64,000 nucleotides of DNA from Escherichia coli (GCF_003334355.1 NZ_QOWP01000011.1); one strand, 5' to 3'. Counted from the stretch's first letter, positions 4,875 to 5,815 are shown. Program-made: numbers and translations. Notes: generated by a model from the sequence alone, not told the origin.

Positions 4875-5436
4875 CAGGTTTTGAGTATTTCAGGAAGTGA
4901 TGGTGGTGGGGGAAGGATTACTCAGCGCTGCGCGCTTCGCCCTTCGGGTCGTTGCCTGCGGCAACGCTCTCTCGCTGGCGCTCAAGTCGAACCTTGGTCG
5001 AAGCTTCTCATCCTTCCCCGCTTGGGCAGAATATTTAATTGCGGATTCGTTTGAGAGTTTACGGACTTTTGAAAAGTGATGGTGGTGGGGGAAGGATTAC
5101 TCAGCGCTGCGCGCTTCGCCCTTCGGGTCGTTGCCTGCGGCAACGCTCTCTCGCTGGCGCTCAAGTCGAACCTTGGTCGAAGCTTCTCATCCTTCCCCGC
5201 TTGGGCAGAATATTTAATTGCGGATTCGTTTGAGAGTTTACGGACTTTTGAAAAGTGATGGTGGTGGGGGAAGGATTACTCAGCGCTGCGCGCTTCGCCC
5301 TTCGGGTCGTTGCCTGCGGCAACGCTCTCTCGCTGGCGCTCAAGTCGAACCTTGGTCGAAGCTTCTCATCCTTCCCCGCTTGGGCAGAATATTTAATTAC
5401 GGATTCGTTTGAGAGTTCAGGGACTTTTGAAAGTGA
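4875..5436 (-). repeat. rttR: rtT tandem repeat array: ~3.1 copies of a ~179-bp unit immediately 3' of tyrV, each unit beginning with the 3'-terminal ~19 nt of tRNA-Tyr (region that encodes the rtT RNA / Tpr peptide in K-12)
   Basis: Direct tandem repetition visible in sequence (ORF track shows identical 60-aa ORFs at 4897 and 5076, and a third at 5255 with the same start); every unit starts tggtggtgggggaaggatt, identical to the tRNA-Tyr 3' end. Confidence 0.8.
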
Positions 5437-5521
5437 TGGTGGTGGGGGAAGGATTCGAACCTTCGAAGTCGATGACGGCAGATTTACAGTCTGCTCCCTT
5501 TGGCCGCTCGGGAACCCCACC
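5437..5521 (-). tRNA. tyrV: tRNA-Tyr (GUA anticodon), promoter-distal copy
   Basis: Reverse complement is GGTGGGGTTCCCGAGCGGCCAAAGGGAGCAGACTGTAAATCTGCCGTCATCGACTTCGAAGGTTCGAATCCTTCCCCCACCACCA, 85 nt including encoded CCA; cloverleaf with long variable arm. Confidence 0.93.
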
Positions 5522-5730
5522 AGGGGTAATTCAAATTTCGAGGTAATGCTTGAGATGGTGGTGGGGGAAGGATTATTCGTCGCTTCGCTCCTCACCCTTC
5601 GGGCCGTTGCCTGTGGCAACGTTCTCTCGCTTTCGCTCGAATCGAACCTTAGTCGAAGGTTCTCACCCTTCCCCGATGAGTGCAAACTTTCACAATCTCA
5701 CCGAAGTTACCACATCGCTGTGGTGAATTA

Positions 5731-5815
5731 TGGTGGTGGGGGAAGGATTCGAACCTTCGAAGTCGATGACGGCAGATTTACAGTCTGCTCCCTTTGGCCG
5801 CTCGGGAACCCCACC
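5731..5815 (-). tRNA. tyrT: tRNA-Tyr (GUA anticodon), promoter-proximal copy
   Basis: Second identical 85-nt tRNA-Tyr sequence, separated from the first by a 209-bp spacer that is itself a diverged copy of the 3' repeat unit. Confidence 0.93.

Follow-up and report, generated by a model that had tools for sequence, protein, structure and literature searches.

The tyrT-tyrV operon of Escherichia coli: two tRNA-Tyr genes followed by strain-variable tRNA-linked RtT repeats

tRNA-linked repeats (TLRs) were first described at the tyrT locus of Escherichia coli (Egan and Landy, 1978; see also Rudd, 1999; reviewed in PMC8144298), and K-12 harbours 22 copies of them at ten loci. Here we analyse a 64,000-nt stretch of E. 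coli DNA (GCF_003334355.1, NZ_QOWP01000011.1; hereafter ‘the window’), in which the interval 4875-5815 holds two tRNA-Tyr genes and an array of such repeats, the RtT elements. This is the narI / tyrV-tyrT / purU locus, the founding example of tRNA-linked repeats; as a preliminary description of the window, made from the sequence alone, rightly said, it is known and not a novelty, having been described since 1978 and annotated by both Rfam and RefSeq. The TLRs as a group, including RrA, RrB and RrF, which follow 5S rRNA genes, share 18-19 bp of identity with the 3′ end of the upstream stable RNA gene, lie within stable-RNA operons and are co-transcribed with them, and their 3′ repeat has been proposed to recruit RNase E and direct its cleavage, through recognition of the kind given to the 3′ end of the preceding stable RNA (PMC8144298). 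The RtT elements of the window resemble them in the shared 3′ end and the location, and would do so in co-transcription and processing. RrA, RrB and RrF differ in being single copies placed between two intrinsic terminators and in binding Hfq and CsrA in vitro, whereas the TLRs of tyrT are in tandem, have no intrinsic terminator and are predicted not to bind CsrA. A second relevant precedent is 3′ETS-leuZ from the glyW-cysT-leuZ operon, a non-tRNA RNA that is freed from a tRNA-operon transcript in an RNase E-dependent manner, as would be the case for RtT. In contrast to RtT, 3′ETS-leuZ is a single short trailer and a demonstrated sponge of the small RNAs (sRNAs) RyhB and RybB, while RtT is repeated, longer and highly structured, has a tRNA-like CCA end and has no known target; indeed, no function is known for TLRs in general (PMC8144298).

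The K-12 operon tyrT-tyrV-rttR-tpr (b1231, b1230, b4425, b1229) is ∼97.3% identical to the locus in the window. The two are alike in gene order (narI, ychS, rttR/tpr, tyrV, tyrT, purU), strand logic and promoter, and also in having two identical tRNA-Tyr genes, a spacer of 209 bp that holds one RtT, a set of three distal units followed by a short remnant, and the same 19-mer. They differ in that units 2 and 3 of K-12 measure 178 bp as opposed to 179 bp in the window, and in that the tpr frame is open in repeat 1 of K-12 but closed in all copies of the window by a change from CGA to TGA at codon 10. The locus was matched in all 5,426 complete E. coli genomes of our collection, and RefSeq labels the matching elements as ‘RtT sRNA, processed from tyrT transcript’, along with tRNA-Tyr, narI and purU.

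We read the whole interval as a minus-strand tyrT-tyrV tRNA-Tyr operon with TLR/RtT units, whose transcript would be processed at tRNA-like ends and stopped by Rho, and whose repeats undergo unequal recombination, an explanation to which we assign a probability of roughly 0.9. Tandem Repeats Finder returned a period of 179 with 3.1 copies, 98% matches and a score of 1094 at 4895-5455, so that the array begins at 4895 and not, as the preliminary description had it, at 4875; a second periodicity of 297 bp corresponds to one tRNA plus the spacer. A repeat search placed in-register copies at 4895-5073, 5074-5252 and 5253-5431 (100, 100 and 98% identity) and a fourth copy inside the spacer, at 5550-5728, with 67% ungapped identity. 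The tRNA ends in 19 nt whose reverse complement, TGGTGGTGGGGGAAGGATT, is found as a perfect match six times, starting at 4901, 5080, 5259, 5437, 5556 and 5731, compared with a mean of 0.01 in shuffled sequences, where 0 of 100 shuffles reached six occurrences. One 19-mer belongs to each tRNA, one lies in the spacer and one stands at the end of each distal unit, with start-to-start spacings of 178 nt at distal unit 1 and of 175 and 119 nt around the spacer. Tandem periodicity and possession of the tRNA 3′ segment, the two points on which the preliminary description had staked its claim of three ∼179-bp units beside a tRNA-Tyr pair, are thus both borne out, the units being 178-179 bp long and 98-100% identical. 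ARAGORN identified two tRNA-Tyr(GTA) genes, both on the minus strand, as the sole tRNA genes of the window. The anatomy demonstrated here is as follows, in the direction of transcription for the operon and with its neighbours last:

5866-5893, minus strand: tyrT promoter, TTTACA - 16 nt - TATGAT, matching 10 of 12 positions, with TG ahead of the -10 element
5731-5815, minus strand: tyrT, the promoter-proximal tRNA-Tyr(GTA) (ARAGORN; Rfam tRNA 53.4 bits; position of K-12 tyrT)
5522-5730, minus strand: spacer of 209 bp, made up of one spacer-type RtT and the 34-nt 5′ leader of tyrV
5556-5687, minus strand: spacer-type RtT (a TLR), with its terminal 19-mer at 5556-5574 (Rfam RF00391, 132.9 bits)
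5437-5521, minus strand: tyrV, tRNA-Tyr(GTA), identical to tyrT (ARAGORN, repeat search)
5259-5436, minus strand: distal unit 1, 178 nt, a 7-nt trailer plus a 171-nt equivalent of rttR at 5259-5429 (RtT core 5259-5390, 134.2 bits)
5080-5258, minus strand: distal unit 2, 179 nt (RtT core 5080-5211, 134.2 bits), 100% identical to unit 3
4901-5079, minus strand: distal unit 3, 179 nt (RtT core 4901-5032, 134.2 bits), with an intact 19-mer at 4901-4919
4895-4900, minus strand: last 6 nt of the array, the trailer TCACTT past the final CCA (the ‘0.1’ of the 3.1 copies)
5391-5450, minus strand: C-rich, G-poor linker (35% C and 7% G in the transcript), with equivalents at about 5211-5270, 5031-5090 and 4851-4925
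4041-4718, plus strand: narI ORF (open reading frame)
5975-6817, minus strand: ORF of the size of purU

The tyrT and tyrV genes are identical, the sole mismatch of their 91-nt repeat falling outside the genes, and the spacer between them has the 209 bp first ascribed to it. Membership of the RtT elements in their family is demonstrated by four full-length matches to the Rfam RtT model RF00391 (model positions 1-130 of 130; gathering score 45 bits), three at 134.2 bits and one at 132.9 bits, all of them on the strand of the tRNA-Tyr genes and either downstream of or between the two. In each of the four elements the identity with the upstream tRNA 3′ end, which amounts to 18-19 bp in TLRs, is 19 of 19. 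These matches, the K-12 gene order and the RefSeq label uphold the ‘rtT’ half of the rtT/Tpr arrangement originally proposed, the ‘Tpr’ half of which is considered below. On the transcript the repeat unit can be phased either way, yet the meaningful RNA ends with the tRNA-like 19-mer, because the Rfam model terminates in CCACCA and K-12 rttR (171 nt), which starts 7 nt past the CCA of tyrV, likewise stops at the CCA of the first repeat. It is therefore correct that the units carry the last ∼19 nt of the tRNA, as first proposed, but not that they begin with them: the processed RNA ends with this segment.

Could the repeats instead be protein-coding, with a 29-aa protamine-like Tpr on the minus strand and a YchS-like product on the plus strand, their repetition reflecting gene duplication? 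The K-12 annotation does place tpr (b1229) and ychS (b1228) inside the array, and the window contains ORFs of 28-189 aa on both strands, namely paired ORFs of 60, 64 and 28 aa along with one of 189 and one of 174 aa. These ORFs cross the tRNA genes. In the window, the frame that begins at the start of K-12 tpr gives the following:

5340-5369, 5161-5190 and 4982-5011, minus strand: truncated tpr-like ORF, MRSFDQGST followed by a stop

All three window copies thus have TGA at codon 10 of the tpr frame, where repeat 1 of K-12 has CGA, and none contains an intact 29-codon tpr; even in K-12 the 29-codon frame is closed in two of the three repeats, repeat 1 alone being open. Among 150 RtT copies from many species, 133 carry the tpr start motif; 95 of these stop after five codons and 21 start with GTG instead of ATG. 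Moreover, the start codon abuts a Shine-Dalgarno-like GGAAGG without any spacer and within the closing stem of the RNA, the variation between copies suits RNA helices with compensatory changes and not codons, and the RefSeq Prokaryotic Genome Annotation Pipeline has no coding sequence across the region in other strains. We consider the protein-coding explanation extremely improbable. Tpr was rejected as a real gene on account of the premature stops in the window and in most species, and its annotation looks spurious, with no conserved gene behind it; the ‘Tpr’ half of the arrangement therefore falls. The plus-strand ORFs, including ychS-like ones, and the 174-aa and 189-aa ORFs cross repeats and tRNA genes and are artefacts, as had been surmised when the duplicated ORFs were first put down to the repeats. 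For annotation, this means that ORFs of the tpr and ychS type over 4880-5825, on either strand, should not be called genes.

Within 4600-6100 there is a single sigma-70-like site, the minus-strand promoter at 5893-5866 ahead of tyrT, whose TTTACA-16-TATGAT arrangement we take to be the classical tyrT promoter, and no intrinsic terminator was found on the minus strand of the same region. With a sole promoter ahead of tyrT and no such terminator, the tyrT-tyrV operon is read leftwards and converges on narI; its strand, which the preliminary description had not given, is minus. Both the synteny narI / tyrV-tyrT / purU and the upstream tyrT promoter identify the operon as that of tyrT. Its product would be one long transcript consisting of a tRNA, the spacer RtT, the second tRNA and the three distal RtT units, each RtT unit comprising a G-poor, unstructured linker of ∼45 nt followed by a structured core of ∼130 nt. 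The last 19 nt of the core are a copy of the tRNA segment that runs from T-loop to CCA, and this 3′ strand pairs with a complementary 5′ strand, thereby closing the element. Because each unit reproduces the tRNA 3′ end together with a trailer, we infer that a tRNA 3′-maturation cut occurs after every unit, with RNase E cutting in the trailer and exonucleases trimming to the CCA, and that such processing would release the tRNAs along with ∼171-nt RtT RNAs. In keeping with this scheme, the polycistronic tyrT-tyrV-tpr transcript and its spacers have been found to accumulate in an RNase E mutant (PMC3082872), and rttR is encoded by one repeat unit (PMC3318445).

The linkers may also account for how this transcript ends. 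When composition was followed along the transcript strand in sliding 60-nt windows, one C-rich (35-38%), G-poor (7-10%) tract was seen per unit, that is, a composition resembling that of Rho utilization (rut) sites recurs once in every unit of the window. Composition also seems to be what is kept in other species, as 43 distinct linkers average 10% G and have more C than G in 42 of 43 cases, the sequence itself not being conserved. Judged by composition, the linkers are most likely Rho entry and termination sites; spaced periodically, they would load Rho and terminate transcription, stopping a very strong promoter from reading antisense into narI, which is consistent with the Rho-dependent termination reportedly described for the distal region of tyrT by Kupper and colleagues in 1978 and by Rossi and colleagues in 1981.

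The preliminary description had suggested that copy number varies between strains and that recombination could delete or duplicate a tRNA gene, and natural genomes bear out both suggestions. With the left and right flanks, 1 kb of each, fused into one query, we took 60 records at even steps down the ranking of the E. coli collection, and counted RtT in the 52 records whose flanks were joined. Polymorphism in the population is demonstrated by the result: RtT copies at the locus ranged from zero to five, with none in one genome, one copy in 14, two in 9, three in 10, four in 15 and five in 3. The commonest class (15 of 52) has the layout of the window and of K-12, with four RtT and two tRNA genes. 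In the rows for which a tRNA count was listed, the locus mostly had two tRNA-Tyr genes, with one in two genomes and three in one. At a flank identity to the window of 99.8% or more, genomes were found to carry four, two and three RtT copies, and KFu022, the best match over the full length (99.6%), is one unit short of the window. Rearranged layouts that we fetched include the following:

20Ec-P-124 (L004): three tRNAs 34 nt apart and one RtT
LFB1-1-1R (L005): one tRNA and one RtT
FDAARGOS_1285 (L006): two tRNAs and zero RtT, the end of tyrV being the usual end of the last RtT
ET358 (L003): two spacer RtTs and three distal ones

In E. coli genomes lacking the spacer RtT, the spacer measures 34 nt, and in the fetched examples the junctions of the rearranged layouts coincide with 19-mers; all of these layouts are the expected products of exchange between repeats that contain the 19-mer. 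The near-identical 178-179-bp units and the shared 19-mer are substrates for unequal homologous recombination, through which both RtT units and tRNA-Tyr genes come to differ in number from strain to strain. A change of this kind has also taken place in the laboratory: Stbl4 (L120, NZ_CP081009.1), a cloning strain derived from K-12, has K-12 flanks and a single distal unit, two units (∼356 bp) having been lost in the laboratory lineage. The locus is therefore a natural and well-sampled case of unequal recombination that alters tRNA gene dosage (1-3 tRNA-Tyr, 0-5 RtT), and at the same time a length-polymorphic marker that may collapse in short-read assemblies.

Larger insertions were also encountered between the flanks. 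Transposase genes of IS4 or IS621 (IS110-like) lie within the narI-purU interval of 4 of the 52 genomes (records H92, H107, H109 and H110), and 8 of the 60 records have more than 1.5 kb between the two flanks. In EcPF14 (L121:1715-8723, NZ_CP054230.1), the one of these eight that we examined, a 7-kb island of seven genes takes the place of the 176-bp narI-RtT intergenic region; its genes are of lipid type, encoding a β-ketoacyl-ACP synthase III (KAS III)-like protein, an epimerase, a metallo-β-lactamase (MBL) hydrolase, an F390-synthetase-like protein, a PAP2 phosphatase, a sterol desaturase and an acyl-CoA desaturase. The island joins the array 6 nt past the CCA of RtT, the strain keeps one tRNA-Tyr and one RtT, and the island contains no integrase and has no 19-mer or att-like duplication at its far end.

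Beyond E. coli, a degenerate pattern for the RtT core detected 113 stretches in species-representative genomes, nearly all from Enterobacterales, in Citrobacter, Klebsiella, Enterobacter, Salmonella arizonae / diarizonae, Pectobacterium, Brenneria, Serratia, Pantoea, Xenorhabdus, Pragia and Sodalis. We next took five E. coli copies, together with the Rfam structure, to build a covariance model, which gave 196 matches in 100 loci across Enterobacterales, of which the best 150 were aligned (alignment A2) and also checked against tRNA predictions. Among these 150, wherever the stretch includes a tRNA (a few short ones do not), the tRNA near RtT is always tRNA-Tyr(GTA) on the same strand, and RtT lies after tRNA-Tyr or between two copies of it, in arrays of one to five. 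The 19 nt at the 3′ end of RtT track the tRNA-Tyr of their own species, being within 0-1 mismatch in 105 of 129 cases and following A/G variants in the acceptor and C/T variants in the T-stem. A change in the T-stem strand is moreover mirrored in the 5′ strand of the closing stem, converting GC to AU at one pair.

The two positions that RtT occupies relative to the tRNA genes correspond to two subtypes. In other species (loci L007-L108), 23 RtTs are flanked on both sides by tRNA-Tyr genes, and every one proved nearer to the spacer copy of the window (92.7% on average) than to the distal one (82.0%), the spacer and distal cores of the window themselves being 85.6% identical. In hairpin C of the RNA, the spacer RtT of the window has tandem G.A/A.G where the distal copies have G-C/C-G. 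Spacer-type and distal-type RtT are hence old paralogues, and the spacer copy is no decaying duplicate: the spacer does hold an RtT copy, as first noted, yet ‘diverged’ does not do justice to a subtype that is conserved across genera.

Covariation of the RNA is demonstrated by the 150-sequence alignment. The Rfam structure used as template was read from the window alignment and captures only part of the fold; on this Rfam-type structure, seven pairs show double changes. A fuller structure, derived with RNAalifold and inspection, consists of the closing stem, hairpin A (A2 columns 51-57/64-70), hairpin B (73-78/85-90) and hairpin C (102-109/116-123). Double changes occur at 16 of its pairs, in 204 cells, compared with 43 in shuffles and at most 23 in slid registers, the observed value being reached in 0 of 500 shuffles. 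Support for hairpins A and C does not come from fitting of the model, because they are mostly absent from the model that built the alignment. Both contain conserved tandem G.A/A.G positions, one pair in C alternating with G-C/C-G, and the G-U variants, which are frequent, suit base pairing of an RNA made from the minus strand. For the 5′ domain there are two alternative folds, Rfam helices 2 and 3 versus a local hairpin from RNAalifold, and its columns are invariant or vary on one side only.

Several points weigh against our reading of the operon, or at least against parts of it. Folded as a single sequence, the 171-nt RNA is unexceptional (z = -1.09), and we relied on covariation instead. The exact cut sites and the role of Rho are deduced from composition and from the K-12 literature. 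The copy numbers derive from deposited assemblies, some of which may have collapsed or expanded the repeats. Finally, RtT is dispensable in nature, as one of the 52 sampled genomes has none at the locus and RtT losses have been published for IAI39 and E2348/69; since such RtT-less natural strains exist, neither a terminator nor an sRNA role can be essential.

What RtT does within this operon is a separate matter. Given its T-stem-based closing stem, three covarying hairpins (two with tandem G.A/A.G) and invariant single-stranded motifs, RtT might be an ancient, selected structured RNA module whose spacer and distal subtypes predate the split of the genera and whose function is coupled to tRNA transcription, such as binding of a protein or RNA, or control of tRNA 3′ maturation or of Rho termination. 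We put this forward tentatively, as a possibility on which we would not wager. A different proposal has the RtT RNA acting in trans, either as a sponge or as an sRNA that binds protein, and being produced in proportion to transcription of tRNA-Tyr, with the array setting its dosage. Conservation of the core across Enterobacterales, with its hairpins and unpaired motifs, and the old, separately conserved spacer subtype could be accommodated by such a regulator, for which the related RrA, RrB and RrF, with their binding of Hfq and CsrA in vitro (PMC8144298), and 3′ETS-leuZ, a tRNA-operon by-product acting as a sponge, provide precedents; rttR is also reported to be stress-responsive, in a source that cites this at second hand. 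On the other hand, the original stringent-response phenotype has been retracted, the TLRs of tRNA operons scored below 0.01 in a predictor of CsrA binders, and in one screen biofilm, motility and fimbriae were all unaffected by overexpression of RttR (97 ± 9%). The 0-5 copies of natural isolates and the lack of a known target speak in the same direction, so that we regard a trans-acting role as doubtful. Against this stand the order-wide conservation and clear covariation, and the function of RtT and other TLRs is a tractable question in tRNA-operon biology.

As for the origin of RtT, its 5′ strand (5369-5390) resembles the reverse complement of the T-arm and 3′ part of the acceptor of the tRNA (5437-5470), with 19 matches over 22 nt, a score reached in 2 of 2000 shuffles. 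This inverted similarity extends past the closing stem and hints that RtT arose by inverted partial duplication of the tRNA 3′ end. A likeness in direct sense between the RtT body and the T-arm of the tRNA (CTTCGA...AGGTTCGA) was considered as well and dropped as not significant, 106 of 2000 shuffles scoring as high.

The same module occurs on a different tRNA outside Enterobacterales: in a metagenome-assembled genome of Cellvibrionaceae (L033:2804-3054, JALUYN010000029.1), a tRNA-Gln(TTG) is followed, 44 nt further downstream, by an RtT-like core whose final 19 nt repeat the 3′ end of that tRNA exactly. That exactly 19 nt are shared here again could be taken as a sign that the tRNA duplications are attL/attR-type scars of integrative elements and that the RtT body is a remnant which was later amplified. 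The identity block does span the T-loop to the CCA end, the form that many integrase att cores take in tRNA genes, and in B2-type E. coli the 7-kb island described above adjoins the last RtT. However, there is no integrase nearby and the far end of the island is devoid of the 19-mer; the RtT unit had no match in 50,697 phage records, distant mode included; conservation of the body with compensatory changes across an entire order is unlike what a decaying remnant would show; and TLRs are found after 5S rRNA genes too, and integrases do not target these. An origin from integration scars is thus very unlikely in our view, and descent from a phage or integrative element was set aside given the empty distant-mode phage search and an EcPF14 island with neither integrase nor att-like duplication.

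One match of the search fell under an unexpected label: L082 (CACSKA010000003.1), labelled Chryseobacterium sp. 18061, contains two enterobacterial-type tRNA-Tyr genes and two RtT of 121-129 bits, and is probably a mislabelled or contaminated assembly. Elsewhere in the window, Rfam recorded the STnc180 sRNA at 52495-52697 on the plus strand (198 bits) and the trp operon leader at 39962-40055 on the minus strand (93 bits), both ordinary chromosomal features.

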